A DNA stretch of 64,000 nucleotides from Tricharina praecox (Eukaryota): contig NW_026250403.1 of NCBI RefSeq assembly GCF_024521635.1, positions 2,170,001 through 2,234,000 on the forward strand, in the 5' to 3' direction. Each line of letters starts with the position of its first letter. Position 1 is the first letter of the stretch. Positions 20,545-54,779 of this stretch are shown piece by piece. Below the pieces are notes generated by a model that did no database searches, was not told the origin of the DNA, and was given only the letters and a program-made list of their open reading frames with translations. The position numbers and the translations under genes are program-made.

Positions 20545-20687
20545 ATTTTTCTCATTTTTTAATGATGGACACTGGTGACTGGACAGCAAACATCGCGTTG
20601 CTTTTGGATCCATTTTTTGAATGGCTTATGCAACATGGTCTGTGAGATAAGATTAGATCATCAGCTCCCTGCCGTAACCGATAAGCT

Positions 20688-20704
20688 ATGCTTATCCACC
20701 CACC

Positions 20705-20741
<37 letters not shown>

Positions 20742-30370: not shown

Positions 30371-31424
30371 TCATTCGTTGCCGTCAGGCTCTCCGCCATC
30401 CCGCGCAGCCTGACTCATAGTGATCCAGCGATCAAACAAGTCAACCGTATCTCCGCCAGTCTTGTCCCCAGCCTTTCCTTTTCCCTTCTCCTTCCTCTTC
30501 TCTTTGCGTGTGACCACGAGGCAGAGCACCTTGTCGTAGATGGTGAAGCCCTCGTACTCGGTCCGAAACTTGACCTTTTCCTTCTTGTCCTCCGTTCCTG
30601 GCTCTCCCAATTGCGTCTCAGCTCGCCGACCCCGTGATGGAGGAGGAGGAGAACGACGGGGAACGAAATCGTCATCCGAGTCGGAATCGCCAGGTCCAGG
30701 GAGGAATAGCGGTTCCTCCTCCACGCCGGCCGGCGGCGGCGGCGCCTCGGGAATGTCCATGATTTGCATCTCGTCATCCGCATCCTCCTCTTCGCGGATC
30801 TGCACTACGGGCGAGGACCTCGCCGCGTCGGTAAGAGCTGTGGAATTTGACCTTATGGGAAGCGTCTTGACCTCGACGTCGCGATCCTTGCGGAGCACGG
30901 CATGCAGCGAACCCGCACCGGTAAGGTACATGGCGGCCTCGAAGTCCTCTATTACAGTATCATTAATTAGAAACAACCGGTACATACATATGGGATGTGG
31001 GGGTGAGCATGTGTATGTGCGTGGGGGGTGAGCTCCACGTACCGCCGACGACGACCTGCTTCTCCTTCGCCTTTACTCTGGCGGCGCCGCGCAGATTGCG
31101 CGCCTCCGACAGCATCGGCAGCACCAGGTGCTTAATCTCGGCAAAGACGCGGTCGATTGCGCCGGCACGCGTGAGCCACAGCACGTCTGCAGGATTGGGC
31201 ACGAAGACGCGGGCTTCCAGCACTCTGTGATCGATCGGCTCGTGGGTGAGGTTAGCTCGCTTTCGGGTTCGGTTCGGTCTCTCCCTCTTCCTCCCCTCTC
31301 TCCCTCACTCCCCCCACCCCGCTCAGCCCTGCGGGCGTGCGCGGATATGTACGATACATGGGGGGCTGTATGTAGCTACATACGTGTATTTGGAGACGCG
31401 GACATAGCGGCGGAGAATTGGCAT
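30371..31424 (-). CDS. Conserved ascomycete hypothetical protein (exons 31424-31384, 31224-31043, 30948-30371)
   Basis: Spliced product begins MPILRRYVRVSKYTVLEARVFVPNP..LVLPMLSE..EDFEAAMYLT..HAVLRK and ends ..KFRTEYEGFTIYDKVLCLVVTRK..WITMSQA. Introns GTATGT..GCTAAC..CAG (31383-31225) and GTACGT..CTAAT..TAG (31042-30949) keep the frame. Confidence 0.82.
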
Positions 31425-33761
31425 CGTGCACGTGTGCGTGTGTAGTGCGGTATGTAGTGGAGTGTCTTCACCGTTTGCTCTAGATATAGCACCTCGCTGC
31501 CGGTGTAGAATGATTGGTGTATGGTAGAGTAGTGCGACCTTTCCGAAGCGAAAGCGAGGAGCCGAGGCGAACGTGGTGGGCTTCACTGGGGAGCGAATAC
31601 GTTGGCGAAGTCACCATGTCTCGATGCGTACACGTGTGCAAGTGTTAAAGCCGCAAATAATAATGTGGCCTCGCCTCGAGCTGACACCCACCACCAAGCC
31701 TGTCACGCCGTCATGAACGCTCACTCACCCGGGCTGCTTACCTCGGCTGCGGTCTCGATTGTAATCCCGAGAGTGCGTGCGTGCGCCGAACTTCGCGGAA
31801 GCTGAGAAAGCAAGAAAGCGTGGGGGGTAAGTGGCGTGACGCCTCTCTCACTATTTTTTTGAATCTATTTCACGGAGCTGCGGACGCAGGATTCATCCGT
31901 AGCCGTAGATGTGTGTGCTATGTAGAGTAACGATTACAGAGCGCCGCTCAGGTAAGCTGGATGGATAGACATCAACCGAACGTTAGTAATGTACTGGCCC
32001 GCGACGATATGAATCGTGCATTATCTACAGACATCCATCAGAGCTCTATACCACCAACACCCCACGCTGAACCGACCCTGCCTGAAGGCTGAGTGTCAGT
32101 TAACGTCGACGTTACAGATTGATTTCAGCAATCTGCTTTGCTACCGGCGGCAGCGGGAGAAATGCGATAGTTATCCCGCGTATGTAGAGTCGCGGAGCTC
32201 AGGGCTGGACTGTCGCAGGTATGTAGGGAAGGGAAGGGAAGGCAATGGGCTGAGCTGAGCTGAACGGAGCTGAACTGAACTGCTTGCCATGCGCTGCGTC
32301 GTCGTCGTCGTCGTCGTCAGCCCCGACAGGTTGTAATGTAAACATGTAGGATCGAAGTATGAGGTATGTACACAAATATGATTGCCTATGTAGAGTACAC
32401 ATGGGGGGTGGAGCATCGCGCGGGGGTAGCAGCCGTTAATGTTCCTGGCGTCCGACTGCTAACATAGCGGTGCCCATCTCTTACTGTAGTAGTTAGTGGT
32501 AGTACTAATAGTGGTAACACGGAAATAACATCCGTGCATCACTCTTTTTTCGAAATAAAATCGCGGTACCGAGTTACCCGCGACCACATATTCATACATA
32601 GCGGCCAGTGAAACAAACAACTGACACCACCACCACCACACCATCACCGAGCTTACATATGTCCCTCCGAATCGCGCACGGCCGCGAATTCGCTGGTGCG
32701 CGTCGTCTTGGGCCCCCCGACCCCGACCCTTCATCTGTAGGATCGTCAGGAGCCGAGTTTCAACTCAACACGAGGGGGCACGGACTGCATGTTGCAACAC
32801 CGCCACCACCTCTACAAACGTGGTGTCGAGTGAGTGAGTGCGTCGATCGAGAAGGGGGTTGCTCACTGCTCGGAAAAGACGGGCTAAGGAACGTGATTTG
32901 GAGGGACCGACTTTCGAGCCCGCCAGCATCTTTGCACGGGCACCGTTCTCACGATCGAAACGGCGATACCCGCTCAATCACCGAAAGGCGGCCATTTCCC
33001 TGCCTCTCTGTATGTATGACGAGCCCTGCTTCCACGTGGATCTTGGACGATCAACTCGAGCTGTCCACAACTACCCAGGTACTCAGCTACGAGAGCTCCA
33101 CTCGACGGCCAGCAGTATTCCCAATTACTTCATTCGATCCCCCGCCCCATGTACCTCAGTACCTGAGTATGTAAGACTCAGCTCGGCCATCCCCAACTGA
33201 TCACCGGTATCCATAGCACTTAATACCTATACGGCAGTCGACTCCAAGTTTCTATTACGGTACCGCCAGTGTACTCTGTAGTAGAGTCTCCTCGGATACG
33301 ATCGTAAGCCGTGGGGTCCGAGACTCGCAGTTTCGCATATCCAGATACCAATTAGTAGAATACCCATAAGAATAGGGTGCCGGAGTAAATCAGCTCCGCG
33401 TCGGCGAGGACACAGTGTTTGCTTGCCGTAATGCTGCCGTTCCTACTTTGTATGTATTGTACCTGTTCCGGGCAAGCCGTCCACCCGCCTGCGGTCCTTT
33501 ACCCCAAATCGCCGGGACGAAGCCGTACCCATCGGGCGTATGTACCTAATGCATATGGGCACAGTATGTATGTTTTTTTGGCCACAGCTTCCAGCTCCTC
33601 CGAGTCCGACTCCGAGTCCGGACATGAGACGGCGCTACCGTATGTTGGTACTCTAGAGGTAGGTATCGCGTTTATCTGTAAGGCGCGACGACGCCTCTCA
33701 TGGATTGAGGGGGGGGGGGCTGTGCAGTTCACGTCTGCCTGACTTTGTTCCAGGGGAGAAG

Positions 33762-33808
33762 GGGATAGGGATAGGGATAGGGATAGGGATAGGGATAGGG
33801 ATAGGGAT
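33762..33808 (+). repeat. (GGGATA)7 microsatellite
   Basis: Seven perfect hexamer units plus a partial unit. Confidence 0.95.
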
Positions 33809-36800
33809 GAGGATGCAATTATCTACCTATTGGGTAGAGGGAGCTGATACATATCATACAGAAATACATACGAAACTTGGATTCACCGTGCCGTTGCATG
33901 CATTGCATGCACTAATACATAACCTCCCTATGTATTGCATTATTGCACGAGTTCCGTGTCTTCAAGTAGAGATTGCCATAGCCCAAAAAGCTACATGATC
34001 ACCACTCTACGCGTACGCGAGCTGTAAGTAGAGTGTGCATCAAAGTAGAGCATCTCGCCGCCACCACCGCCGTCGCCGCCGCCGCGCGCATCCTTCATAC
34101 ATGGCAAATTATGTAACTCCCTAATGAAGTTTGACCTGAGCAGCCCCTAGGAGGTACTTTTGTATGCATAAAGTACTTTCCCTATGCACGTTTTGGTTTT
34201 TTCTTTCTTTTCGCGGAGACATTGTGTAGAGTACTAGCACTTATACCGTATGTTCTCCATATAGGAGTTACATACAGGAGTTACATACACGAGTTACAGA
34301 GCAGCGCAGAGCAGAGCAAGGGATGGACGAACGAACAAACGTCAAAAAAGCCCGTGCATCTCCCTCTCCCCATTTCCCAAAGCCCATCTCCCCACCCATT
34401 TCCCCAATACGCATCTCTCCCATCTCCCCCATCCCCAGGGCCCATCCCCTCCATCTCCCCAGGGCCATCTCCGCAAAACCAAATTCGACGCGACACGACA
34501 CGTGTGACCCCTGGCATACTTACACAAAGGAGAGAGGGAGGGAGCCAGGGAAACCCACCCCTAAAAAGAAAACGTAAAAGGAAAGCCGAAAAGGAAAAGG
34601 AAACTAAAAAAGAAACGAAAGGAAAGAGAAAAAAATATCCCAACAGCTTTGAGCTCACGCTTTCCATGCGTGTGTGCGCGCCGTGCGTGCGGGCGAACGT
34701 GCGACAGAAGTAAGGGATAGGGCCAGTGGGCCACGATGGGTTGGGAATACCACGCGAGTTGCCTTGGTACCTTGGTATCATACTTGCTTACCAGTATGAT
34801 ATCCCGTCCCTCGTGGAAAGAAAAAAAAAGGGACTGCGGTGGGGAATTCAACGTGGACCTCCTTTCCAATCCAGTCCCGTCCTGTCCTGACGATTCCTGT
34901 CCTGACGATTCCTGTCCTGACTAGTCCAGTCCTGCATCGAAAAAGCAAAAAGAAAAGAAGCCAAAAAGAAAAAGGGCCAAAAGAAAAAAGGGCTAAAAGC
35001 AGAATAGCTAAAACAAAAAAAAGAAAAAGAAGGGGCGTGAGTGGCCAATGCCATGGTGTTCCCACATGGTGTTCCCACCACATGGCACATCGTAGCGGGA
35101 TAGATATCGATTTCTTCGATGCTCTCACATCGCCTCAGCGACGGGTGTGGAGGGACGGACGGATATGGACGGGCCAGTGGGTGTGGATGGATGGATGGAT
35201 GGCCCAGTGGGTAGGTATCAATGATCAGCCTATCCATACACATACACATACGTCCAAGCTGAACATTGATTCCAGCTGCAAGTCCCATCTGCAAGCCCCC
35301 AGCTGCAATCCTGCAATCCTGCAAGCCTCAATGTCTGCTCAGTGCTGCATCAGTGCATCTTTCTCGTCTGAGTCTTGACAAAGGCCTTCGGCGGACCGGA
35401 ACGCTCGTGGCTGTCTGCATCTATGCGCATCGTGATCGTGGTTCTCGGCTGGTCTTCAAACACCGAACCGGGGCCGGAGCGGAGCCGGAGCCGGAGCCGG
35501 AGCGCCACCCTGATGTGTCCGACGGGAACATACTTACGGGCTACGTGGTAACCAATGACGATCTCTACATATCATATCATACATACCGTAGTACCGTAGT
35601 ATCTACCGTAGTATGTCTGTACCTATCCCGCGTCACGATCGAGAAAACGAGACCCTCAGGTTCTCCAACCAAGGTCTCCGTGGAAGTAGAAGTGGACTTC
35701 TTCTCTGAACTTTCAGGGTACATCTCATTGGTAGGTACAAACCGTACCTGCATGCGGTAGTTCGTCCCAACTTTTACAAAATTGCGGAGAAGATCTAGAG
35801 CTACATATCCACGTTCCCAGTCCCCACTTGCAACCCCCCAGAACACGGAGTTCCTGAGAGCGCGCAGGCTAGAGTAAAACTAGAGTAGCAAACCGGTGAA
35901 CCTGAACCTGACCTGACCATCATCAGGATTGCGGTTTCTGCGTGCGAGCGAGCGGTCCGCACTAGGAAACTAGGCACGATGTGTACTAGACAGGTACATA
36001 GATACTCCAAGTCCAAGCAGAGAAATTTTGCCGCGCCGTTCACGGATATACCTTGGTAACTAGTATGTACCCGTACTTAGTGCCAGTTATGTATCATAGG
36101 GCTTCACGTCTCTGGTTCGTTCTGGTCGGCGTCCAGGCCAAGTGAAAGTGCCCTTTGAAGGGCAAGGGCAAAAGGCAAAAGGGCAAAAGGGAAGCTGATG
36201 GGAATTGCTTTTGTTTTTTTCTCGCGTGGAACATGCAAATGTCGAACGACGCCCCCCAATCCCATCCCCCCCTCCAAGCCCCCCTCACTTGCTTGCTGCG
36301 CCGTTCTCAGCTTGCCTGCTTGTTGTTTGCCCTTTGTGTGCCTTACCGGACCCGAGGAACCGACACGACTCCGCTGCCAGTAGGTATGTGGGTAGGTGTA
36401 TGTACCGTATGTATGAAGGAGTGCATGAAGCACGTCTTTTCCCGATGATGCTGCTGCGTTATAGTGACTAGATCGTACCCACAGCTCGGGTCTGCCAGCT
36501 GTAGCGGTGGCCGAGAACGTCCTCGCGGGCTCCCGGGCTCCCACGACGATGATGACGGTGCATACCCGAGGAAGGTAGGTCGGTATGCATAGGTGCCTGA
36601 TCGAGAAGTTCTCTCTTCGGTACTGGATGTGCTCAGCAGCAGCACGGAGTGTGCATAAAGTTTGCCTCCGTGTATGTATGTAGAGTACACACGATACATG
36701 AGGAGCTCATTTGCCACTCGCGTCGAACGGTCTCAAATAGGTGGATGGGCAGAGAAACCAAGCTGCCGACCGAAGACGCTGGACGCAGCCGCTGGTGCGG

Positions 36801-39800
36801 TGCGGTACGGTGCAGTGCAGTGCGGATTACTCGCCATCCCGAGGTGCTGGGTGGAGCAGAGCCAGAATGATATGTAGTTGCGTCGGGGTTCCCGTGGATG
36901 TTCGGCACGGCGCGCAAAGATAAGAGCAGGTACTAGAGTAACTAGAGCAGATACTAGAGTTTAGAGTAACCAGCGTCCGCAGCAAGCTAAATTTCACGGT
37001 GATGGATCGGTCGGTCTCGAATCGATGGCCGATTCTGCCGCCGACGCCGCGGCCGACAGCCCCACGAGACCACCACCACACGTCTTTGTTTTCGTTTTCG
37101 TTTCGCTGAGAAGGTGCTGATCCTGCAGCCCTGTCCGCTTGCCTGCGCGCTCCGACCAGATGCCTAATCCAGATATCTCGGTCAGATCGGTGACCGACAG
37201 AGGCGAGCGAGTTCGTCCGAACGAACGAACGAACCGTCTGGGTCCGCGGAGGGCGGCTATGAACCACCACCCACCCATCCACCCACCGGGGCACGGGAGC
37301 CTTGTTTGGAATATTTTGGCCGCGGAATCGCACTGCACTGCCTATGGATTGATGCCCCATATCTCGCAAGAGCCGACGCGATGTCACGATGGACTGACGC
37401 CCACTTCGGGTGGGCGGCTGGCTGGCCAGCTCCGAGTGGTTCCCAAACGACGAGGCTGAGAAGAAATGTGACGATAGCATAGCTAGCGAGCGTCGGTGAC
37501 GCCGACGGTGGGGGGGTTTTTTTTAACCACGGATGACAGGACTGCGCAGTGCGAGCACTAGGCAGCTAACCCACCAGCTAGCACATCATGCAGGTCCTGA
37601 TGAATTTGCTATACAAACTCACTTGCTCTACAATCACAAACATCTAGCGAGAGATTGTGGCGTTTCTTTGACGATTTCTTCATCCGCAGTTGCGAGGGGG
37701 AGGGGGATCAAAGAGTGGTCTGGGCGTCATCGCGTCCTGAAGAAACGTGGCAGCCACAAGTTTTTTCTTTCCTTTTTTTTGCTGGCGCACGGGCGCAGAG
37801 GGCCATTCGGTTGGTGTTCCCCTGTTGAGTAGGAGCAGGAAGGGAACGCGAAGTTGAATCTGAAGATCCTTCGTTTGGTTTGCTAGAGTAGGCAGAGTGG
37901 AGTGGAGTGGAGTGCCGCGGAGCAGATATGCGAAGACCGATTGCGTTTAGTTGATGGTCCGTAGAGTGCCTGCATATTGTGAACTGTGGGGTTCCCTTTC
38001 GTATTCTTTCGGACTGTCTAGAGTATGCAAGTAGGTTACTTGGGTATGCACATACATCATACATCATACATGCTGTGGTCGGTCGACGGCGATGGTGAGG
38101 ATGCGCTGCTTACCTTTTGGATCCAGCCGGATATTTCGGATCGGCGGGATCGCTACCCTTCTGAAGGCCTGCCTGACGTAACTAGAGTAAGTGCCTGAGG
38201 ATGGGATGACGATTTTGCGTGGGCCTTTGTTGGGAGCGTTTCAGGTACCAGCCCGTCGCGGTTAGTAGCCGAGCCATGAGGAGATGATTCGTGAACCCGT
38301 GATGCCCGATAGCTTGCTCTTCTTCTACATGTGTACCTAGATTGGTTTCATGTTTTCTCTGTGATTTGTTTGCAAGCAGAGGGCAGCGGACGGGCTTGGA
38401 CATTCCCGATCGAGGCAAGTCGAAAGAATACGGGCGGAAAGGGGGGGGGGGTCAAGTCGCACTGGAACGACCAGGCAAACGCGGGCGATCAACGGACAGA
38501 ACAACAGAGGTTTTCCTTTTGGAGGGGGGCCTTTCTCCTGTTTCGTCAGGGCCAACACGTCAGTCCGAAATAGGCTCCGACTCTGGGGGAGGCGCGCTAC
38601 GGAGTTTTCACTTTTTCATGCCTGCCCGCCTCGTGTCTTGTCAGTTGTCTATCGTACGAGGCTGCCAGGTGCGAAGTGAGGTGCGAGTTGCGCGGTGCGC
38701 GGGGCGATGATAAAAGCCAATCTCGAGGTATCCGGGCCCCGCAAGGGTGTTTCGCTCTCACTCATCGTTCTCTCCCCCTTCCCCTTCACCCCCCTCCCCT
38801 CCCCCTTCCACCACATCCGCTGCATGAAGACATGCTTCTGCAGTCATATTCGCACGCGAAGTGTTGTCCGGATTGTCGGGAACCAGCATCGAGTGCCAGG
38901 GCCAGGGGCAGGTCTGGTTCTGTGACCCGGGTCCCGCCCCGTTCATGTCCAGCTGATGGTGGGAAAAACAGCTCGCGCGCTTCGCGTCGCCGACCGGCAG
39001 AGCGAAGGAACGAAAGAGTAAGAGTAATACTCTACATACTCTAGCTGCGAGTGATGTCCGCCTGCAGTGTGCGATACAAACCTACATACTCCCTGGTCCT
39101 CCGTGAGGCTCTCCGATCGGACGAGGCCTAGCAGAGTAGAGTAAAGTAAAGTATCGGGGCCCGGGGGGTGATTGTCGTCGGGGGAGGGCACTTTGCTTGT
39201 TGCCTACATACGCACATCGAAAGGACCGCGAGTGCATGTCTCGAATACCGTAGCGCTGCTCGATATGGGTCAGGAATAGATCAGAGACACTACAGAGGAG
39301 GAGGGGGGGGGCATCTCCGAGTCCGAGGGTTGGAAAGGGAGTGGGACTGTGGGGAGTGCTATAGTTACCGTAGTATGATACTCCAGGGGATTGAGTGCTG
39401 TCGGACGCGAGAGAGAGAGACGAGGCGCGGTGGCTGAGATCGGAGTCGTCGTTGGTTGGTTTCGTTATGGACGTCGGCCATTCAATCCGCGTGGTGGCTG
39501 AGATCGATGTCGTCTGTTGATTTCGTTTTCGTTGTGGACGCCAGGTCCGGTTGCTTCATTCGATTCGCGTGGCCTGCGGATCAGGCCGGGGGGTTTCGTG
39601 CGCAGCCTCGTGCCTTTCTCGATGACTCTCTCTCTCTTTCTCTCGCGCAAAGTGCGGTTTGCCGTCCTGCCCACTACTCGAGGCACTCCAGCCTGGCCTG
39701 GCCTGATGAACGGCGGCACCCGTAGCGTGCGACAAGGGAATATCCTCTTCCGTGCCCGCAGCCCGGCCGGCTAGACAAACAAACGAACGCACGCATTCCG

Positions 39801-40467
39801 CACAGCCTGGCCCTCCCCCCCTCCCCTAACCCAGGCCTCCTCCTCCACCACCACCACCTCCTCCTCCTGCTTCAGGTGAAGCGGACATGTCCAGTAGTAC
39901 CTAGAGCACTCTGCTTTCACGTAGCCACATGTAGACGCGCCTTCCACCCCCCCCCCCCTTGCTCGGCTTCCCAGACCTCCCACCCTCACCCTCACCCTGT
40001 CCCCCATCCCCCAAGCTGCTTAGTCCCCTCACAGCAGCAATAAGTGTCGGGAACGATGTTTAGATGTCGTCAGTGCTGCGGGCTGTTTGCCAGGGGTACC
40101 ATGCCCTCGACCCACCCAACTCACCCCTTCCCCTTTCGTCTCATCATACCCTTTTCTTTCCTTTTCTTTTTGCTGGGCACTCCGAGACAGCTCGAGCAAT
40201 CGTCGTCAGATGATAAATACTTTGGCCTCCTCCCCCCCTCAGACTTCCTATCACTCATCCAACAAACACAAGCAACTCACAGCATCCCACTACCACCTAC
40301 CACTACAACACAGAACATCCACATCCGCTTATAGCATCCTCGAAGTTACCCATCAGGATCCCCTCTTAAGAACCCTCCCTCCACCCACCTCAACGACTAC
40401 CAAACACCCAAACACCACCACAACCAAACAACCAAACAACCAAACAACCAAACAACCAAACATCACA

Positions 40468-40635
40468 ATGCCTGCTCCTTCGCAAACCCTCCACAACCCC
40501 AACGACATCCACTGCCTGAGCAGTCTGGGATACAACTTCAACGGTCCTGTGGCCACTTCGACTCTTCCTCCGCGGCCGGGACCTCCCCCGAACCGCCCGC
40601 TGCCCCCGACTCCCACTTCCGCCGGCGGCAAGTAA
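40468..40635 (+). CDS. Candidate 55-aa proline-rich microprotein MPAPSQTLHNPNDIHCLSSLGYNFNGPVATSTLPPRPGPPPNRPLPPTPTSAGGK
   Basis: ATG in fungal consensus context (CACAATG) after a CAA-rich leader, mostly C/T-ending codons, and a T-rich 3'UTR-like tract at about 41000-41340. No homology evidence available. Confidence 0.55.
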   Translation: MPAPSQTLHNPNDIHCLSSLGYNFNGPVATSTLPPRPGPPPNRPLPPTPTSAGGK

Positions 40636-43600
40636 AGAGCGAGCGCTGTCCACCCCACCACCACTACCCCTCGGATCGATTTCTGTTGCGATTTCCAAAG
40701 AGCCTTCGAACTACGATGTATCCTTATCACTACTACCACTACTATTGTCCGCCATGCTGTCGATTCCGCATCGTCGCTGTCACTGCGACGACCCTCGAGC
40801 ATGCGCGGTGAGGGCCATCGCTCCTGCCCCACCACCACCACCTCGATAACATCTCAACTCAATTCTCTGCGGCGTCGTTCAACGAATCCATCGATACGGA
40901 CTCGACTCCACTCCGCCGCATCTCCTACCGTCGACGAAAGTGCTTCGAACACCGGCAAGGACTGGCTCTTTCACATCGGACGCGGCTCGGGATCTTTCCT
41001 CTGTTTCCTATTTTATTATTTTATTATTCCATTTTCGCTGCACTTCTCTGCATGGTCTGGTTATACAAACTTTTAATACTGGGTTCATTTCCTTTGTTTT
41101 CTTTTTTTTTTTTAGTTTTTCCTTTTTAGTTTTGTGTATCGCACTACACATCGGCGTTTGCTGTGTATTATGTTTTCTACGATGTCATGGGTGCGGGCTG
41201 GACGGGGGTTAATAAAGGGGTGTGGGCGTACTTGCTTGGGCTCTTGTTTTGCAGCATTCTCTGTATTTGTTTTTTTTTGCGGCGGCGGGGAGGTTTATCA
41301 TGGCTGGGGAATATTCGCATTTTAATAATTCATCACAATATTTCTGTGCTGCCTTACAAGACGCTCTCTTTCCTTGCCTTGAATTCCCGGTGACAATAGT
41401 ATGCAATCCGTTCCTCCACTGGTCAGCCAGCCAGGCAGCACAGCATTGCGCACGACTTGCGACTATCATAGAAGGAAGTGGATAGTAGGCACGCTGGGCT
41501 GATGGATGGCTAAATGGCCACGGTCTGGCTGACTGGCCTGTCCTGGCTAGGGACGTCCTGGCTGTCCATGCTGTCCTGGCTGGCCTGTCCTGGCCACGCA
41601 GCTGTACGACAAGGCTGAGCCTACCTACGCAGATCCGAGGAGAGCCGCTGCTCGATGCTCGGTGCTCAGTACCCAATGCTCGGTGTGCAGTGCAGCGCAG
41701 TGCAGTGCAGTGCAGCGCAGTACAGTACAGCGCAGTATGTCCAGAGCAGAGCGGAGTCCGCAATGTACGATCAGGCACGGAATCGGCGTTGAGCTGTGAA
41801 CACAAGCGCCAAGCATGTCCTAAGTTCGCCCGAGTAACCACCGCTCCAACTAGAGTATTATGATACCTGCTGCTCAGCGCTCAGCGCTCGGTAACTATGG
41901 TATGGTATGTGTGTCCCCGACTCCCCGGCAGCCACATGCACTGCACTGCTACCTATTTTCCTGCGCGTCTCGCGCGCCGTGTCACCCCAGGGTGGGTTGG
42001 GTAGGGTAGGTAGGGGCCCAACAATCGTCGCACGCTTTCCAGTGTCAATCAATGTGGTCAATGTGGTCAATGTGGTCAATGTGGGTCGCATACCCCAACT
42101 GGGTGGCGGGTGCGCTGATCGGACGGAGCGTGCTGGGTAGGTGGGTAGGTGGGTACGAATGTTGGAACTTAACTTGGTGGAACTTGGGGTACCTGGGTGT
42201 GTACCTGAGTGCGTAGGACTGGATTGGGGTGCATTGGTTTGGGTTCCGTCCCATTTCTGGATCCTGGGTCGGGACTCGGGATCGAGGGAATGAGGGAATG
42301 GTGCGGAACCCGGCGGACGCTGGATATCGCGGGCTGGACTGGTTCCGTCTGTCTGTGGGGCACTGGTGCTGTCTACGTTGAGGAGTGAGCATACCTACTC
42401 TAGCCACTCGACTTTAGTACCGCCGGCCCCAGAGTCCCAGACCACTGGTGTGTTGGAACTTGGAACTTAATGGAGATCTCCACGGGTTGCCATGTGGAGA
42501 GCTCTCGGGGGGCACCATCACCGCTCGCCGGATTCGGTTGGCCCGCGTACCTACCTTGTACGGCGAGTGCGATTGGGGGCGGCCCGACGGGAGGCGCGCG
42601 CGCTCTCGTCTCTCTTCTCTCTTCCGTCTCGCGGTACGGCGACAGTTGGTGTCCAGTCCACTTCCGCTTGGTTAGTTAACTACATGCTTGTTTTATGCTT
42701 CGCCTCGTGGGTGGTGAAGACTTAAAACTGTGCAGTTTTTCAAAAGTTCAAAGTTCAAACGCGATGATCGCCACCAGCACCACCAACAGCACCACCACTA
42801 CGTATCATCCCACCACCACCACCATACGCCTAGACGGTGGTATAGGCGGTGGTATAGGCGGCGGTAGGACCGAATTCCTCGCTCGCTCGCTTGCTCGATC
42901 TGCGTTCGCCAATTCCTTTGCGATCGGCGGCGGTGCGCGTGTGGTGCGGCCAGAAGGGGGTGTCTCACAGTGAAGTGCATGACTGGCGGGCTGGCCAGTG
43001 CGCCGTCGTCGTCGGCTTGCAGTCGAGGGGTCGTCGCCGTCGTCGGCCCCACTACAGAGCATACATAGGATGGATGCATTGCCATTTGCGGTGGCCCGGT
43101 GGGGCGGCGGCACTCTACGTACCTACGTAAGCATACTTACCTACCGCAGGTACTCGGCGGTACCTGCCTCAGCACTGGTGTAGGTACCGTACCTGGCATT
43201 GGTTACCGCCGCCGCTGGCGAGGCGGCTGGGCTTTGGCGCCCGTCGCTACCCCCCTCTCGCCAAATCACAACTAAGGGTGCCTGCCAATCGCTTCGCCGG
43301 TCAGGTAGGGCTGGATACTTACTTCCCACCGTCCATCCAGTCCGGTCCGGTCCTGCTTCTCGACGTTACGATTATCTACACACCTACATCTATACATTAT
43401 GCATCGTCTGTATGTAATACTGTGATGCAGGTCGATGGCGGACGAAATGCGGCTGCGACCACGCGCGGCATTCTGTCCGTGCCTCGAAACCCTCGAAACC
43501 CTCGCTAACAACATTTTTTCTTTACCCCACGCCTACTGATCGCAGCCGCACTGTCTCGGGAACCGGACCCGACCCGACTCCACAGCTCAGATTTTTGCCC

Positions 43601-45501
43601 GGGAGGTAGGTATGGCATGGTATGGTTTGTGATGAACTCTAAACCCCCCTCCCCCTCCTTCCCCCCCCGTTCCCCCAGTCTGTCTGCCTGTGCATCTATC
43701 TACTCTACGGATTGTCTCTCTGGTCCGGTAATAATTATCTAGGCACCTATATCTGAAGTATCTATCGTATCTTCGCGCGAGAGAGATGTGGAGAACGCCC
43801 GATAAGACCTCTGAGAGTGCCCGATTGCTGCTGCACAGTCTGCACAGTACTGTCTGCACTGGCACTGGCAGGTCGGCTGTGCAGTGGGCAGTGGGTAACG
43901 GGTTATCGTGATGCCCCCCAGCTGCCCCCCAGCTGCCCCCCACGGATATCGGACGGTATGTATGATACCAAGACGCACTACGGTATCTAACTAACCACTG
44001 GAATATCCAAATGCCCAGACCAGAGCAGACCAGCCATGTGCGAAGCCTCCCCCTCACCCCCCCCCGCTCCCTCCCAACGGTGGCATGGCAGAGAGTGCTC
44101 TAGTTGACATCGCTGATGATGGATCAGCAATCCGCCGAGAGACGAGGCGAAAGAGTATCGGTCAGCACCGCTGCACCGAGGACGAGTGGGGAATGGGGTG
44201 GTGGGCGCGGTGGTGGGCTGCGAAGTGGAAGTGAGGGGAACATCCATATCATACGCACGCACGCACCAGCCCAAAGACTACCTGAAAGACAGCAGAAGGA
44301 AAATATGACCGGCACGGTGCGATACGTCTATGATGGCCGGCATTGCCGGATTCTCGTATCAGTGGGATGAACCCTCCCCCCATCCACCCTCATCACCCCC
44401 AGATCAACGAAGCATACGTCCACCCATGACCCCAATGCCCATGGAGCTATGGATTCACCCACGTTTATTGTCGCAAGAGTGAGGGGAAGTACCTACCTAG
44501 TACCTAGGTCGGTACATAGCTAGATCGGACTTGCGACACCCGCGGCTTTGTTCGCAGTTCGCAGTTCGCCTTGTCGAGCAATAGTCATGGATGGATTGAG
44601 GGATGGATGGAGGGATGGATGGGTGGATTTAGGATCGGTATTGACCGGGTTTCCGGAGTCGGTATGTAAACTGGGAGAGTGGGTGAGTGGGTGAGTCGCG
44701 ACTGGGTGACTAGGGCCCAGCAGCAGCCACAAGGCAAGAGCGAGAAACTGCGAAGGCAGGCAGGCAGGCAAGGCAAGGCAAGGAGTCCGGTCGGTCGCAC
44801 TCGCCTCGCCTCACCTCACTTCACTTCACTCACTCATGGAGGCGGATCCGGCGCGCGCCCGCGGAGCTCTTCATACCGAATCCGAGGTCCGACTACATAC
44901 GAGAGGCGGAGTGAAGGAGGCACCCTTGGCCCACATACATACGATGCTTGGCCAGTCAGTCAGTCAGTCGAAGCCGGTGGTCTCGACCGTTTGCAAATAA
45001 TGGCTGCCGGTCAGCCGGCCGGCAGGGCCATGGTTTTTTGGTGCACCCACTCTTCAAGCTAACTGAGAGAGTCGAGACGAAGTGCCTACTCTAGAGTGCT
45101 CTACATGCTCTACATGCTCAAGTCTCCATCATACCGTATGTACCTAGGCGACGCTGTTACTCTAGAGTAGTTATCTGCAAGGCACCGCGCGCCGCAGGAA
45201 GTTAAGGTTGATCAATCAACTCTCCAATCTCCCCACAAGACCACATGACGCCCTTTTCACACGCACAACCCTCCCCCCGTACCCCATCCCCCATCCCCCG
45301 GACGCAATATGCGCGTACTCATGTCATGTACGGATATATATCCAGCTAGCCCCAGGCACCATCATGCTGCCTATGTTGGCCTATGATTCACTCCCCATTT
45401 GGCGGGGAGGGGGGACAGACGCACTAAACATCCCACGACAGGCGCGGGAACTAGGTTCCGAGTCCACTAGTCGTTTCAAATTGGTGGCCTATGATGCTGC
45501 T

Positions 45502-45549
45502 GATGGTGATGATGGTGATGATGGTGATGATGGTGATGATGGTGATGAT
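45502..45549 (+). repeat. (GATGGTGAT)n tandem repeat
   Basis: About five 9-bp units. Confidence 0.9.
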
Positions 45550-48151
45550 TATGACGATGATGCTGCTGACAATGGTGAGGGATGGGCTGCTCGCTCCACA
45601 GTGCATATAGTACCTGAGTGTGTAGACATCATAGCATACATACATTCGCTAAAGCGCGGATGCGGCCCAGCTTCACGCGAGTGCGAATATGAGATGAGCG
45701 GGGTCGGGGGAGGAACAATCCAGAGACCCAGAGAGAGACTCCGGGGAGAGAGCGAAAGATTGGTGTCACACACACGCACGTATAATGCGGAGAAGGGGAG
45801 AAAGGGACGAGCATATCGGTTCTCGCCGTGGCAGATGCCGCGGAGGTTCCTATGCAGCTGTTTTTGTGCTAAATGTTTTTTGCTTTTTGTTAATTTGGTG
45901 AAATTGCCCCTATGCTACTTTATGTAGGCTGACTAGGGAACTTTGTACTATCCTCGACACATCCCATCCCATCCATCGCCACTTTGTGTGCGTGCGTGCG
46001 TGCGCGCGGGCCGACTCCACAATTGAGAGAGGAGCCTACCTGGAGTAAGACATGCGGACCAGTATAGGTCCTACTTTCATCGGGACTCCGGCGGCGGTCG
46101 ACATGGACACTGGACATCGGACACACCGGACAGTGCGAGTGACACCGAGTGCACACCCCAGTTCGAAACACAAATAGCAGCCGTGTACTCTACTCCACTC
46201 CACCTCAAGTGAGCGAGTCCGCATGAGCTAAGCTTTTCACATACAAATACATCGGGGCAGTTGGAACTGTGAGTTATGTCCCTACTCAAGTACCGTATGA
46301 TGCATACTCTAGCTCTCGACAACGTGAAATTTGACAGCCGCGCGCGCCACCCACCGTTCGTCCGTTCGTCCGTCCGTCCGTTTATGCGTTGCGAAAATAC
46401 GTAAGCGTTCCGATTATGCAAGGGGCCCAAGACTCAAGTTCAGGGCCCATAGCTAGTGCTAGTAGTCAGCGGCACGGCATTACCATGGTCAATGCTAGGA
46501 ACCATTTTTAGGCAATCGGCCGGGCCGTCTCCGTGTCCGTCGGCGCCGGGCGGGGGCGGGGGCTTTTCTTGAATCTTCAGCAGCAGAGCGCGCGGCTTTC
46601 CTTCCTCTCTTACACCAGTTAGCTCCGGCGGCGACTTTTTAAGTTTCTAGCGACTAACTTCATCCCTCTCTCAACGAAGCAAAAAAAGAAAAGGAAAAAG
46701 GAGAGAAAAGAAAAGGAGAGAAACTTAAAGATGCATACTGTGAACTGTTTCCATGTATCGTATGTATGCAGATCCTCCACCCCCTTGGCGGTACGTATGG
46801 AGTACATACAGCGCCGAGCCGGAGGCGGAGGCGACTCCCGCTTGCTTGGATTTGACCGACCCCGACCATTCAAGAGTCAGCACCGCTGCGTGTCTCAGGT
46901 TGCAGCCCGAAAACAAGAGGCATCTTTGCGGCGTCCATGGATTTTCCTCCCATGGTGCGGATGAACCTGTTCCAGTCCGGAACGACGCTATGTATAGTAG
47001 AAAGGGGTGCGGCGGGAGCGGCGCGCAGGACTCAAGACTCAGGGGTCGTGATGGTCATAGATGGTCACTCGGCCGTCCCGCTCCTTCCGTGTTCCAGTGG
47101 TTTAGGAAAGCGTCAGCTATGATGTGGAGTATGTAGAGTAACTAGGACGTTTCCTGTCCAACTATAGTACTGTCTCGCGCGGAGGAAAAGGAAGAAGAAG
47201 CATTGACTACGGTTCTCCTATAATTTCCAGATCAGATCCCACCCGTTCCTCTAACTATAGTAAAACTGTAGATACCTACTCTCCTAGGTACTCTACTCCG
47301 GAGAGTGGGGCAACTACTCTACTGAGACTCAGTGGAGCACATCCATTCAACACACGGACCTGTCCGTATTTGCTTGCGTCCCAAACCGTCGATTAATACG
47401 ACTTCATCGGCGGAGATCGTCGCATTGGATCTCACTTGCAATAGCTTTGCCAGATTAGCGAAGCTGACACTACTGCTGCTGCTGCCGCTGCTGCCTGACT
47501 GCGCGCTTGCTTGCTTACTTCCCACATGTCAACTTTTCTCTCCTTTCCTTTCCCAAGTAACGATTGCGAGAACGAGGCCCCCAAAATATCTATTTGGCAT
47601 CCGGCGAAAGATCAACAAGCCCTCATGACCACTTGTAATATATGTACAAGGTAGTCCTCGCCTCTTGCCTCTTGCCTCTTGCCTTTACCAAACACCTCCC
47701 CGCACTGTCTCCTTCCTTTTTACATCGCGTATACAGCAGCAGGTACACCAGCAGCAGGTACAATGCAATGCATCATTTGCAACTCGCGATTGTGCATGAT
47801 CCTTCCCCCCTCCCCCGTCGTCCCTCCCGCGTCGCTCCTCCCCGGGGCCCCCGTAAACGAACACCGTTGCCAATTCTCGCAATATGTGTACTTTAAATAC
47901 ATACTCCTTTATTTTCTTTTCCTTCCCAATATACATACAGGGCCTCCGTCAACTTCCAAGCAATTGGCGAGAAAATAAATCAAAAACCGAAACATCGTCC
48001 CATTTAGGCAATACCTAGTATTTCGACCAATGCCCCGTCGTCGGTCGAGCCCGCTTCCTCGCCCGCTTCCCCGCCGCTCTGCTGTGGCTACTCTACATGG
48101 GCTAGACCCTCCCTCTGTCTCTCTCTCCCTCTCCCTCTCTCTCTCCCCCCG

Positions 48152-48184
<33 letters not shown>
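48152..48184 (+). repeat. Poly-C run (33 nt) after a CT-rich tract
   Basis: Homopolymer seen directly. Confidence 0.95.
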
Positions 48185-48187
<3 letters not shown>

Positions 48188-50234
48188 TCGTATCGTATCG
48201 TATCGTATCGATCTCCGCTTATACATACTCTACTATAATTTCACGCGCGTGATCGTGATCGTGTCGCGTGGGTGCGTGGAGTTGGGTTTAATCTGGGACG
48301 ATTATTCCTGCCTCGGACACTCCGACGAGTCTCCGAGTGCCACAGAGATTGCTACAGACTACAGACAGTGCAATGGTTCCGGCTTCAAGACTCGAGTGAG
48401 TGAGTGTCAAGTGGACGCAGGTCACGAAGCACAAAGCACAAAGCACAACGCCCATGGAGAAAAACAAAAACGGCGGCACTCTACATACTCTACTCTACAT
48501 ACTCTACATGTGTCAAACTGCAATGGGGGGTTGGAAGGGGGAACGGTACGGGGAGGCAGATTGATTGGGCGAAACACGGTTAGGGACAATCTAGAGTAGC
48601 AGGTGCCATCCGTCTTCCTCGGAGGTGGGATTATCCGGTAACTGTACTCTCCGGTGGAGGTCAGCGGGGGAGGGGGGAGGCTGGGCGAGAACTCTTTCTC
48701 CGACGGTGCATGTAGAGATGTATGTTGTATGTAGATGCAGAAGTCGCACTCGTATGTACACGAAAGGTGCTGGTTCGATGCTCCCCTGATCCCCACAGCC
48801 TACCTACATACTCAACGTGCGCCTGTGTACGGACGGGCAACTGCTTTTTCTTTCTTTCCTTTTCTTTTCTTCCTTCCTTCCCTATCCTCTCTCGGGTTCC
48901 GAGCGGTACGGTACGGTACTGTACGGTGCGGCACGATTCGAGCGGGCTTGTCCGAGCGGCCGGCTGCAGTCTGCAGATGTATGTAACGACCGCGGGCGAA
49001 ATTGGAGGGGACCTCCACATCGGCAGCGGTTGTCTAGTCTATAATACCTAGTACATAGAGTGGTTACTGCACCTATATACGCACCTATATCGATGCGCAC
49101 ATGTGCATGCGGGATGTCGTGCAGATGGATGGATAGTAAACCTCCATGGCGACAGCCAGTAGAGTGCGATCGGTCCATGTATGTATGTAGGTGCAGAGTT
49201 GTGTACTAGGTAACTAGGAGATATCTGGTCCCATCTATCCAGGTGGACGATCCCTCCTCCCCGTCCTCCTCCCCCCCTCCTCCGCATCCTCCTCCTCGCA
49301 TCCAATCCTCGTCTTGACTTGACTCGCCGCTTGTCTGTGACCCGCCTGGGGCGCGCAGAGTCGCGGAGTCGCGGTAGTTACTCTACGGGACGGGACGTTG
49401 GACGGCCGGAGGCCCGGAGCGAAAGCGCACTTGTGGTCTACCTACCGTCGCCACCCCCCACTGCCACATCGACATCGTGGCCTGATGATCCGTCATCGAT
49501 CCATCCCCACGGTTTGCGGTTTGCAGTTTGCGGTTTTCAGTGCCGGTTCCTTCCGCAACACAACTGATCGTTGCAGCACCCGATTTTCCACACCATGGAT
49601 AACCACTGCTAACTAGTGCAAAGCCACAACTGCCGCCGCCGCTACCGCTGCCGGCGCCGGCGCCGGCGCGACGCTTTTCCGGTGTCTGCCTGTCTGTCTG
49701 TCTGGCAGTCTGGCAGTCTGTCTGTCGGACATCAAAGATCAGGAGACGATCGGGAGTCCTCTGGCAACTCCTGGCGGTGAACAACGGACGAGACGAGACG
49801 AGACGCACGAGACACCGCCAAGCTTCGGCGGGCGGGTTATTCGACGCCGTACCGTACCTATGTACATGTAGGGTTTCGCGAGTGGCGACGGAGAAAAAAA
49901 AAGACTGCAGGACTGCAAGACTGTACCCCCACTTAGTTGCGAGCGGATACCTCCTCCTACATCGAGCCTTCCAGGCGAGTGATCGGATTGTCGAAATACT
50001 ATGTAAGTACTAGGTAAGTAGCTGCCGCTTCTGGCGGGCCCGGGTCCGAGTACGCTGCGTAGACTACCCGCTCCGCTGCACAGTGCTGTGCAGGCACGCA
50101 GCACGCACGTGGGCTCGCGGAGTGAGAATCCGTGTACTGTAGGACAGTGACCATGTAGAGTGTCCATCTGGTCTAGGACTCTAGGCACTTTGCAGCGTCA
50201 TGCCGGATGCTGATGATGGATCGTCCCGGCCCGC

Positions 50235-50520
50235 GTCGAAGAGTGCGAACGGGTGATCAGGAACTCCGACAGAGTCCTAGTCTACTCTAATCACCATGCT
50301 GGGTACTTGGGAGCAGAACCGTGGCCCCACGAGTCATGGACAAGACTCTGTCAGCACACTACCTACCTGGTCGAAGAGTGCGAACGGGTGATCAGGAACT
50401 CCGACGGAGTACTGCTCTGCTATAATCACCATGCTAGGTACTTGGTGATCAGGAACTCCGACAGAGTACTAGGTACTCTGGAGTAATCACCATGCTACTT
50501 GGAAGTTGGGAGCAGAACCG
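50235..50520 (+). repeat. Short degenerate tandem triplication
   Basis: GTCGAAGAGTGCGAACGGGTGATCAGGAACTCCGAC at 50235 and 50370; GGTGATCAGGAACTCCGAC again at 50444; TAATCACCATGCT three times; TTGGGAGCAGAACCG twice. Confidence 0.85.
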
Positions 50521-50953
50521 GTTCTCCACGATTCACGGACAAGGCTGGCTGCCAGCATGCTGATAGTTTCTGGCTATTCTTCCTAAACCATGTTCGGATG
50601 GTGTGGTGGGGTGCGAGGCTGTCTGTGACCACGATTGTTCGTCCTGTGATATCTCGTGAATGGGTTGGTAGGTACCTAGTTGGCATCTTAGCAGTTCGTA
50701 CATAGATGGTTTAACTTATGGAGAGAGAGAGAACATCAACCAATTTTCGTATGCGGCCTTGATACTAGACTATGGCGACCACAAACTCGATCTTTCCTGC
50801 CAGCTCCATGGGGGCAGAGAGAAAGCTCTTCCTACCGCCGCGGCCCATTGCTGCGCCGCTGGGTTCAACTTATGAGTTTTTGTTCTTTTTTGTTCGTTCA
50901 TTGATTGCATGCGACCTATCTAGATCATGACAATATTTACCCGTGCACTTGAT

Positions 50954-52168
50954 TCTGTGGATTGCCGCCAAATCTGCCACTCGAGTTGAATGGTCTTATA
51001 CTTATGTTGGACCTTGCTACTTTCTCAATCCATCGGTCAACCTACGCAGTCGGAAACAGACGAGCGAGCAATGCTGGTTTCTATCGGCCCCATAACTACC
51101 ACCAGGCATGATGTGCTTTCCTCGCACGGAGCCTATGTAGTAATGGACCACAAAAAACCTCGCCTCCTCGCATTGCAGCCAGGAAGGTGATGTTTTTTTA
51201 GAGGAAATCCGAAGGGAAAAAACCTCAACCACGTAAGGGGCGTTATGTCAGTCCGCTGTGCTCTTGCCACTGCTATGTGTTTGCTCTTTACTCTTGCCAC
51301 TGCTGTTGTGCTTTGCTCATGCCTGTGCTTGAAGAGAGAAGATGATAGGAGAGGGGGGAGAAGGGGTTTTATAGCTATCGCGGCCGGGTGGCTTGGAACT
51401 TCGTGGGTCTTGCCTTTTGAAGGGCCGTTCTGCTGGCTAGTGACGGTTTCTTTCCACCTTTTGAAGGATAACGCTAGGGCTTCTTCTTCTTCCGCGCACA
51501 TTCTGATTACCTTCCTTCCTTCCCTTCCTCTTTCTCTTCCTCACTACCAACACCAACACCAACACCAACACCAACACCACCAAGTAATATTCTTTCCACA
51601 AAAAAAGGAACCATCCGACCAGCACCAGGACGCTACTACAGTCTACCAGCGCGGATCGGACAGACGTACACCAACAATCGACCACACGTCACATCTTTGT
51701 TTTTCAATACCTTGACTGTGACGACGTGGGCTGACGCAAACCTACAGTGGGAACCTGGGGACCAACTGGACCACAACAACGCGGCGGATACCAATGGACC
51801 AGCCGGATTCCGGGAATATTGTGGGGAGGAAGTGCGGACGTAATGCAGGCTGCACAGAAGACAACAAATGGGATCACGTACCCGGCGGCCTCACGACGGA
51901 CGGATCAACAAACCAGCAGACAACTCGACTATCCGGCGGACACCAATCAACCAACCGAACCCACGAAGATCAATGGACGTATATCAAAATGCATCCTTCC
52001 ACCACACCTCTGTGTTCAATACTTTGGTTGTGGTGCAAGCGAGCGTATACACATTGCAGACATGCCTTAATAATTCATTCGGGGGAGCGTACCTATGTAG
52101 TATGTAGTAGGATAGTGAATAGAAACTATTCGGCCAATGTGGCTGGTCACAAACCAATCAGGTTGTGC
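50954..52168 (+). mobile_element. Dispersed repeat of about 1.2 kb, copy B (inverted relative to copy A)
   Basis: Begins TCTGTGGATTGCCGCCAAATCTGCC and ends GGCTGGTCACAAACCAATCAGGTTGTGC, matching the reverse complement of 22455-23649. Confidence 0.85.
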
Positions 52169-52895: not shown

Positions 52896-52984
52896 TGATC
52901 GCAGCAAGGATTGAACTTGCGGCCTTCTCGGTTTTGATTTACATTCCTGTAAACGAGATGTGATAACCACTACACCATGCGACC
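52896..52984 (-). tRNA. tRNA-Val(TAC) with intron (52932-52947)
   Basis: Exons are the exact reverse complement of the 20449 tRNA exons; the 16-nt intron is different. Confidence 0.93.
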
Positions 52985-53830: not shown

Positions 53831-54779
53831 ATGTGGTCCCCCCCCTCCCGCCGCGCCAGCGAGATCGTCCTGCCCACCGCCTCCGGCGCACCACCACCGT
53901 CGCAGTCAAACGAGTACATCAATTCGCTCTACAGTCTCGCGGGCAAGACGGCGGTCGTGACCGGCGGCACCCGCGGGATCGGCGCGGGAATCGCCGTAGC
54001 TCTGTAATCCCCCCCCCCTTCCTCCCCCGTCCCCCTCCCCGCGTGTGTGCATGGGCTGACCTCCGCCCAGCGCCTCCGCCGGCGCGAACATAATCCTCCC
54101 GATCCGCACGCCGCACAGCGGCGCCACGACCATATCCCGCATCGAGTCATTGGGGCGGCGGTGCCGGACCTTCCCGTGCGACCTCGGCAACACACCGGAG
54201 GTATCCACGTTAATCTCACGTATCACCAGTGCAGGCGAGCGCATCGACATCCTCGTGAACTGCGCGGGGTGGCACGTCCGCAAGCCGGCAGAGACGTACA
54301 GCGACGCGGAGCTGGAGGGGATCTGGCGGGTCAATCTCGGGGCGATGTTTATCCTGTGCCGTGACGTGGCGGCGCACTGGTTCGCTGAGGACCTGCAGGG
54401 CTGGGGGAATGCCAGTGGGGTCCCGAGAAAGAAGATCATTAATACTGCCAGCGTGCTGAGTTTTACCGGCGGGACGGGCCTCGCGGCCTACACCGCGACG
54501 AAGGGTGGCATCGCACAGGTCACGAAAACGTTCAGTAATGAGTGGGCCGCAAGGGGGATCAATGTCAACGCCATCGCGCCGGGGTATATCCGCACGGACT
54601 TGACGCGGGATCTGCAGGAGGACGCGGAGAAGAATGCGGAGGTGATGCGGCGGACGCCGGTGGGCCGCTGGGGCGAGACGGCGGATCTGGCGGGGCTCGT
54701 GGTCTTCCTTGCGAGTGGCGCGAGCGATTTTATGGCTGGCGCGGTCGTCCCCGTCGATGGTGGGTACACCGCGAGGTAG
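53831..54779 (+). CDS. Short-chain dehydrogenase/reductase, 2-deoxy-D-gluconate 3-dehydrogenase (KduD)-like (exons 53831-54003, 54071-54779)
   Basis: TGGTRGIG cofactor motif, IDILVNCAG, KIINTAS, catalytic YTATK, VNAIAPGYIRT, GRWG, VDGG. Intron GTAATC 54004..CAG 54070 with GCTGAC branch site. Confidence 0.92.

Follow-up and report, generated by a model that had tools for sequence, protein, structure and literature searches.

A conserved 55-residue microprotein of cup fungi with a class I SH3-ligand consensus at an isolated locus of Tricharina praecox

A conserved small gene of the Pezizales

Does an open reading frame (ORF) of only 55 codons, standing alone in the Tricharina praecox genome, encode a working protein, and what might its proline-rich motif bind? 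In the window (the whole stretch of 64,000 nucleotides that was analysed, contig NW_026250403.1, positions 2,170,001 to 2,234,000), the frame opens with an ATG at 40468 in the context ATCACAATGC, runs for 55 codons on the plus strand to a TAA at 40633-40635, and translates to MPAPSQTLHNPNDIHCLSSLGYNFNGPVATSTLPPRPGPPPNRPLPPTPTSAGGK (P0001), just as an earlier reading of the letters alone (here the sequence-only reading) had described it. The CAA-rich leader of that description is likewise present, with eight units of ACCAAACA at 40399-40462 and 82% A+C over the final 200 nt before the ATG (A 0.40, C 0.42, G 0.06, T 0.12). Its T-rich trailer exists, but at ~41000-41140, some 370 nt beyond the stop, and the DNA directly 3' of the stop is C-rich. 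Because this DNA is poor in T and G, numerous overlapping frames of like length are open around the ORF, in all frames; the ORF by itself therefore proves nothing, and comparative evidence is needed. Genes of such size are usually missed in fungal annotation. The comparisons below identify this one as almost certainly a real coding gene, a status about as firm as comparative data allow, and as part of a new, uncharacterised microprotein family of Pezizales (cup fungi).

Intact homologues of 50-57 amino acids (aa) comprise five database proteins and 11 of 11 confirmed metagenome loci. A word-indexed search returned P0002 (57 aa, E 2.1e-16) and P0003 (50 aa, E 4.6e-13), both of its two candidates being homologues; a search for longer relatives contributed P0004 (one of 59 candidates), and a cluster look-up gave two more, P0005 and P0006. 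The models of P0004 and P0005 carry long N-terminal extensions, yet the extra residues are unconserved and similarity begins exactly at MPAP; on this comparison both are over-called upstream. A profile search of 1.84 billion representatives matched P0003 and P0007 only and revealed no longer protein with the microprotein module. The first ~30 residues of P0007 (130 aa) are common to the Morchella-type microprotein, after which it becomes low-complexity and lacks a proline block, and it is most likely a wrong (frameshifted or mis-spliced) model of the same gene from another Pezizomycete.

The sole named relative is a "hypothetical" Morchella protein. P0003 corresponds to Morchella sextelata XP_044695420.1 / KAH0610225.1, "uncharacterized protein H6S33_011752", and is a true homologue (E 5.7e-21 with the family profile): the start and the two conserved blocks agree, the stop again follows the motif directly, and the differences are a shorter tail, PPCP for PPRP, and Ser for Cys16. 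As it carries no functional annotation, it adds distribution, not function. A 15-billion-protein collection does not contain the exact protein of the window, and this 50-aa uncharacterized entry is the one homologue found with a source name, so that placing the gene below annotation cut-offs, as the sequence-only reading did, was fair. No description of the family was found in the literature searched (Pezizomycetes small ORFs, lineage-specific genes, SH3 motif microproteins).

Of 72 pattern matches in JGI metagenome contigs, 11 were confirmed (L001-L011), and at every one of these loci an ORF of 52-57 codons is intact, opens at the same start and closes soon after the proline motif. L001-L003 encode 55 aa with 0-1 amino-acid change relative to the window, L004 and L005 encode 57 aa, and L006-L011 encode Morchella-like peptides of 52 aa, their ATG lying five codons downstream of an in-frame stop. 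Substitutions were counted by Nei-Gojobori and compared as the ratio of non-synonymous to synonymous rates (dN/dS). Between the window and L002 we count 16.0 synonymous and 0.0 non-synonymous changes (dN/dS 0), a 16/16 outcome with a neutral probability of ~8e-10. The corresponding values are 16.0 and 1.0 for L001 (dN/dS 0.017) and 26.3 and 10.7 for L004 (dN/dS 0.075), while L006, L007, and L008 differ pairwise by 5-6 synonymous and 0 non-synonymous changes (dN/dS 0). Against the Morchella-like group, the window is saturated at synonymous sites (proportion of synonymous differences, pS, 0.78-0.86), with a non-synonymous proportion (pN) of 0.20-0.21. These counts indicate that purifying selection acts on the peptide sequence itself (dN/dS 0.02-0.08 where measurable), and the conserved, slowly evolving ORF foreseen by the sequence-only reading is borne out in intact homologues.

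The gene is also transcribed, without splicing. Four runs were mapped on 31001-51000, X1 being a DNA run and the annotated kind of X3-X5 being only a guess. At the nearest upstream transcribed gene, a spliced unit at 31043-32346(-), contigs of X3, X4, and X5 skip 159 nt at 31224/31384 with CT..AC ends (intron 31225-31383, GT..AG on the minus strand), and the X3 contig also skips 95 nt at 31956/32052 (intron 31957-32051, likewise GT..AG), so that X3 contigs show both introns and X4 and X5 the first. Because these contigs skip introns that a single X1 contig runs through (31001-33751, no skip), X3-X5 contain spliced, RNA-derived sequence. Over the ORF they extend across 40433-41082 (X3), 40434-41082 (X4), and 40402-41348 (X5) with no joint inside, and the X3 and X4 contigs have 0 other letters; the ORF is therefore not an exon of a spliced gene, and the transcription that the sequence-only reading presupposed is observed. 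Contig depth over the microprotein versus the neighbouring gene was 1573 versus 152 (X3), 1688 versus 377 (X4), and 111 versus 5.8 (X5), although such depth cannot rank genes. The bin at 39672-40338 carries depth as well. The contig starts at 40433/40434 are assembly breaks and not the transcription start, since they coincide with the ACCAAACA repeat and with the start of the DNA contig. The shared X3/X4 contig end at 41082, with ~31 letters of each record unplaced, is only a weak hint of a 3' end. A separate observation is that the X5 contig lacks one 8-nt ACCAAACA unit at 40420 and carries 16 non-matching letters ahead of 40402; the missing unit indicates variation in leader repeat number between strains or close species.

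We take the MPAP codon to be the first AUG of the mRNA, because the leaders are ATG-free and the ATG context is conserved. The stretch from the TATA-like box to the start contains no ATG in the window or in 8 of 8 loci tested (L001-L008), L006-L008 have no ATG within 450 nt upstream of the start, and the context C(A/G)CAATGC is kept throughout.

These data also bear on three other accounts of the ORF. One would make the 55 aa part of a longer protein, either a 141-aa form beginning at an in-frame ATG at 40210 or a product spliced to downstream exons, and it can point to a frame that is open from 40024, to the extended models of P0004 and P0005, and to a transcription start that is unmapped. 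However, the ATG at 40210 overlaps the conserved TATA box and is ATA in L002 and CTC in L001, the upstream residues are unconserved, L006-L011 have their in-frame stop five codons before the start, the stop position is conserved, and RNA-derived contigs are unspliced over 40433-41082; a leader with 6% G and 12% T accounts for the upstream frame being open. We consider such a longer protein highly improbable. A chance ORF in C/A-rich intergenic DNA, which the many overlapping ORFs of similar length would suggest, is already refuted by homologues in distinct lineages with near-exclusive synonymous change and by a six-frame comparison of the whole transcription unit, in which only the ORF frame is 92-98% conserved between relatives, whereas the remaining frames show 35-70% identity and frame switches between species. 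No second conserved ORF was found in the transcript (window, L002, and L001; 40040-41400). An upstream ORF (uORF) identity is ruled out by this lack of a conserved main ORF downstream together with the selection on the peptide itself. Finally, the RNA could be the chief functional product and the small ORF secondary. This account draws on a conservation of the 3' untranslated region (3'UTR) and downstream block above what neutrality would predict, since they retain 0.77-0.86 ungapped identity versus 0.57-0.66 for the leader (Table 1), and on conserved words shared even with L004. Against it, the dN/dS of 0.02-0.08 and the saturation of synonymous sites between groups show selection on the amino acids themselves, RNAalifold (three sequences) found no convincing conserved 3'UTR structure, with a covariation term of only -3.28 kcal/mol, and a 3'UTR hairpin candidate at 40749-40808 (an imperfect inverted repeat, -27.5 kcal/mol, z -2.6) was rejected, being lost in L002 (z +1.15) and L001 (z +1.84). 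A chiefly RNA-based function is very unlikely, but a dual UTR role such as stability or localisation alongside the peptide is possible.

The proline block and its candidate SH3 partner

In a clean 7-sequence protein alignment (A3), 34 of the 55 positions are invariant and form two blocks (Table 1), separated by a variable linker (residues 28-37) with indels and followed by a tail of 2 to 9 residues beyond P49. No known motif could be assigned to the N-terminal block (residues 1-27). In the C-terminal block, G38, P39, P40, P41, R43, P44, L45, P46, P47, and P49 are invariant, and position 48 is T or L. AlphaFold2, run on the 7-sequence alignment, gave a predicted local distance difference test score (pLDDT) of 66.4 and a predicted template modelling score (pTM) of 0.19; one 3-residue helix was the only helix or strand in the model. 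The protein is thus predicted to be disordered, and the proline motif would lie in an unfolded, accessible segment (pLDDT 77 over residues 41-50, the helix lying elsewhere). Searches for named relatives of the microprotein returned 0 Pfam families at E up to 10, no sequence relative in the PDB (best E 1.5, a repeat protein), and no usable match of P0001 or P0003 in the ESM Atlas.

Class I SH3 ligands are given as +xxPxxP and class II ligands as PxxPx+ in passages of PMC5823434 and PMC2756588. R43-P-L-P46-P-(T/L)-P49 is an exact class I fit, with the basic R43 three positions before the first core proline and the core prolines P46 and P49 spaced PxxP; inspection gave no class II reading of R43 or R36. 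The residues R43, P44, L45, P46, P47, and P49 are invariant in 6/6, 7/7 (A3), and 12/12 sequences compared, and the sequence-only reading was right to see the class I SH3-binding consensus in RPLPPxP. Its second PxxP-type site, PPRP, falls away, since it is not kept in that form: the Morchella group has PPCP, and other members show APR-G or PPR-G. The motif reads NRPLPPTP in the window, L001-L003, and P0003; NRPLPPLP in L004, L005, P0002, and P0006; TRPLPPTP in L006-L011; and TRPLPPLP in P0005. No SH3-domain protein is encoded in the window itself, as judged by a Pfam scan of 150 of its 155 stop-to-stop ORFs of at least 110 aa (the other five lie beyond 62.8 kb), a scope that holds for the Pfam results below.

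The closest resemblance among characterised ligands is to the Saccharomyces cerevisiae mitogen-activated protein kinase (MAPK) kinase Pbs2, whose Sho1 SH3 ligand (residues 93-99) is printed as IVNKPLPPLPVAGSS in PMC5823434 and as VNKPLPPLPVAG in a passage of PMC4904012. It has the class I orientation and nearly the same letters as PPNRPLPPLPA (L004, L005, P0002, P0006) and PPNRPLPPTPT (window), and the NRPLPPLP members differ from it by one K/R change, a resemblance of letters only. The Pbs2 motif sits inside a large kinase, whereas the microprotein family presents it on a stand-alone peptide of 50-57 aa; the residues before N are IV in Pbs2 and PP in the microprotein. According to a passage in PMC12505296, Pbs2 residues 85-92 form an extended motif that also contacts Sho1, and this part has no visible counterpart in the microprotein. 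We therefore regard the peptide as a look-alike of the Pbs2 motif and not a member of the Pbs2 family, since no kinase carries the module. With generic class I ligands it shares an invariant basic residue, PxxP spacing, hydrophobic intervening positions, and a predicted disordered context. A class I motif does not name its partner: PMC2756588 counts eight class I SH3 domains in yeast alone and places about half of the specificity of SH3 domains outside the core. Among the literature matches listed that pair RPLPPLP with SH3, none was fungal.

The microprotein also invites comparison with another class of small regulators. Classical microProtein regulators are truncated paralogues of the proteins they inhibit. 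Like them, the window peptide is very small, consists of an interaction module only, and could titrate a larger complex; unlike them, it has no detectable parent protein. A literature search on microproteins with an SH3 domain and PxxP found only unrelated human proteomics. A fungal ribosomally synthesized and posttranslationally modified peptide precursor was considered and rejected: the peptide has no repeats, no Pfam-recognisable enzyme lies within 13 kb, and a signal peptide, judged by eye only, is also absent.

We propose that the locus is a stand-alone, TATA-driven gene for a disordered, cytosolic, two-motif microprotein that would serve as a bivalent SH3 adaptor or occupancy regulator, a composite reading to which we give an even chance. 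The C-terminal block would adopt a polyproline-II helix and dock in an SH3 groove in the class I orientation, with Arg43 pairing with the acidic RT loop of the domain. The N-terminal block (residues 1-27) would engage another surface, which could belong to that SH3 protein, away from its canonical pocket, or to a different protein. The process so regulated would be SH3-scaffolded, with a Sho1-type membrane scaffold and the actin-patch and polarity SH3 proteins as candidates, and the dose of the peptide would be set transcriptionally through the conserved promoter and 3'UTR. A bivalent role is favoured over that of the plain competitor, because a competitor would not need conserved residues 1-27. 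In this scheme R43, P46, and P49 offer a precise, mutable handle toward the partner, and the peptide, if it does act on SH3 domains, would be a natural free-standing linear-motif peptide that tunes a scaffold.

Sho1 in particular is an improbable partner, although an attractive one on two counts. A passage in one review (PMC3153207) describes Aspergillus nidulans PbsB as lacking the proline motif needed for Sho1 binding, and another (PMC13452588) states of Sho1 homologues in other fungi that they make no contribution to osmoadaptation. Against this background the peptide, with its nearly letter-perfect copy of the motif (N-R/K-PLPPLP), might be the missing in-trans ligand of the Sho1 SH3 domain in filamentous ascomycetes, using its second conserved block to recruit or block a different effector at the Sho1 scaffold; we rate this a long shot. 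Were it to bind Sho1, it would bear on the role of the Sho1 SH3 domain where Pbs2 has no docking motif, and as an in-trans ligand it would place the wiring of a MAPK sensor under the dose of a microprotein.

We give action through SH3 domains an even chance or slightly better, and several points weigh against it. Conservation of the N-terminal block, which matches no known motif, equals or exceeds that of the PxxP block, so that the peptide may act mainly through it. SH3 domains are not the only readers of proline-rich motifs, WW domains and other modules being among them; the PPLP of some members fits what we take to be a WW class, and Thr48-Pro49, in a PxTP context, presumably could be a proline-directed kinase site, a reading tempered by the replacement of Thr48 by Leu in several members. 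SH3 scaffolds occur in all fungi, but the family has been seen in Pezizales-like sequences only, and translation of the peptide is itself inferred from selection. The alternative is a real microprotein whose proline block is not an SH3 ligand: the block would be read by another module (e.g., WW) or the N-terminal block would be the main agent, and the peptide might be an enzyme inhibitor or pseudosubstrate, or a short-lived regulator acting through a proline N-degron, which is exposed after Met removal from a Met-Pro start. The invariance of M1, P2, A3, and P4 and of 21 of the 27 N-terminal positions, at least as strict as the PxxP block, favours such a peptide, as does PPLP where it occurs. 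However, the window, L001-L003, and the Morchella group have PPTP in place of PPLP, and a PPLP-type WW site is therefore not a feature of the family. Moreover, the R-x-x-P-x-x-P spacing with Leu and then T/L at the hydrophobic positions is the class I SH3 preference as set out in passages of PMC5823434 and PMC2756588. We hold a non-SH3 microprotein to be a possible but doubtful explanation.

Regulatory DNA around the gene

Conserved non-coding blocks surround the ORF (Table 1), and invariant columns were read in an alignment of the window, L001, and L002 (A2). The 14-mer ATGTCGTCAGTGCT of the upstream element also occurs upstream of the ORF in L006, L007, and L008, and a variant, GATGTCATGGG, lies at -359 in L004. 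In the form GATGTC(A/G)T(C/G)(A/G)G (11 nt), the element has only two copies in the 64-kb window on either strand, at 40063 (-405) and 41181 (+713 from the ATG). The two copies bracket the transcription unit and have similar flanks (ATGTTT... upstream and ...TGCGGGCTG downstream). Both are kept in L002; in L001 the downstream copy is kept, and the upstream copy has one change in its first base with the core ATGTCGTCAG retained. In L004 the variant that is "downstream" in the window occupies the upstream position.

Within the promoter block, CCCCTTTCGTCTCATC also occurs at L004:1676, 325 nt before the L004 ATG. Its CCCCT words are what we take to be the core of the stress-response element (STRE), which serves as a lead only. 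ATAAATA is found at -255 from the ATG in the window, -219 in L001 and L003, -183 in L002, and -235/-231 in L004 and L005. On the other side of the gene, GGGCGTACTTGCTT is shared with L004:2633, and the block at 41083..41357 could belong to an extended 3'UTR isoform or to regulatory DNA downstream of the gene. Because no convincing conserved structure was found, constraint on the 3'UTR looks like that on primary-sequence sites. The "heavily regulated" gene of the sequence-only reading gains indirect support from these conserved promoter and 3'UTR blocks.

Further out, a non-coding island at 38867-38962, ~1.5 kb upstream of the gene, is 83.5% identical to L002:1-96, and smaller conserved islands lie at 39093-39131, 39224-39301, 39696-39727, 41601-41632, and 41955-41987. 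These islands (38867-41987) may be distal regulatory elements.

Table 1. Features of the microprotein gene and of the surrounding window. Identities are those of the window to L002/L001, ungapped (counting gaps in parentheses).
Feature	Position	Strand	Basis or remark	Identity L002/L001
Upstream element GATGTCGTCAGTGC, 405 nt before ATG	40063..40076	+	Invariant in window, L001, L002	
Promoter region	40040-40212			0.80/0.77 (0.68/0.66)
Promoter block CCCCTTCCCCTTTCGTCTCATCATA, two CCCCT words	40124..40148	+	Invariant in A2	
TATA-like box ATAAATACTT	40213..40222	+	Invariant in window, L001, L002	
5' leader (inferred), C/A-rich, ATG-free, with (ACCAAACA)x8	40250..40467	+	5' end inferred, unmapped	0.66/0.57 (0.40/0.43)
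Microprotein coding sequence (P0001), 55 aa, stop included	40468..40635	+	ORF, homologues, dN/dS	0.90/0.90 (0.90/0.90)
N-terminal block, residues 1-27, MPAPxQTLxNPNDxxxLSSLGYNFxGP	40468..40548	+	21/27 columns invariant (A3)	
C-terminal block, residues 38-49, GPPPxRPLPPxP	40579..40614	+	Class I SH3-ligand consensus +xxPxxP	
3'UTR to X3/X4 contig end	40636..41082	+	Contigs, no splice	0.81/0.77 (0.70/0.58)
Conserved downstream block, with second element copy (41181) and AATAAA (41211)	41083..41357	+	X5 contig to 41348	41083-41360: 0.86/0.78 (0.72/0.57)
Fungal rhodopsin-like ORF	4171-5049		Pfam	
tRNA gene, 96 nt	20449-20544	+	Rfam; missed by ARAGORN	
tRNA gene, 89 nt	52896-52984	-	Rfam; ARAGORN anticodon TTA ("Stop")	
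Short-chain dehydrogenase	54060-54776	+	Pfam	
Two PPZ exons	56118-57641		Pfam	

The surrounding locus

The isolation claimed for the ORF, ~9 kb upstream and ~13 kb downstream without a protein gene, agrees with what we find: its nearest transcribed or recognisable genes are the spliced unit at 31043-32346(-), the tRNA gene at 52896-52984(-), and the dehydrogenase at 54060-54776(+). Only four ORFs in the window have a Pfam match (rhodopsin-like, short-chain dehydrogenase, and two PPZ exons), with zero matches between 5.05 kb and 54.06 kb. For the PPZ-type phosphatase exon at 56583-57641(-), identity falls from 82% with Trichophaea hybrida through 74% with Pyronema omphalodes, 72% with Geopyxis carbonaria, and 68% with Tuber borchii to 67% with Morchella snyderi, which places the window in the Pezizales, close to the Pyronemataceae. 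In the upstream neighbour, the ORF at 30374-31072 has no Pfam match.

Several long ORFs, at 9834-11771 (646 aa), 17471-19141 (557 aa), and 20685-22070 (462 aa), have no Pfam match either; they may encode disordered or lineage-specific proteins, and at 10-11.8 kb the overlap of open frames hints at an effect of composition. The two tRNA genes (96 and 89 nt) are long enough for introns, and the TTA "Stop" call is probably a misreading caused by the intron. ARAGORN also calls a tRNA-Met at 37202-37289(-), which Rfam does not confirm.

The region 49677-51000, with high depth in all four runs, was considered as a gene and rejected, its contigs being short pieces on simple repeats such as (TGTC)n. 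The simple repeats at 49683-49726 and ~50886-50936 draw very high summed depth from unrelated contigs in the four runs. Between them, at 50240-50500, three to four copies of a ~60-70-nt unit (…GGTGATCAGGAACTCCGACAGAGT…ATCACCATGCT.GGTACTTGG…) can be recognised by eye.

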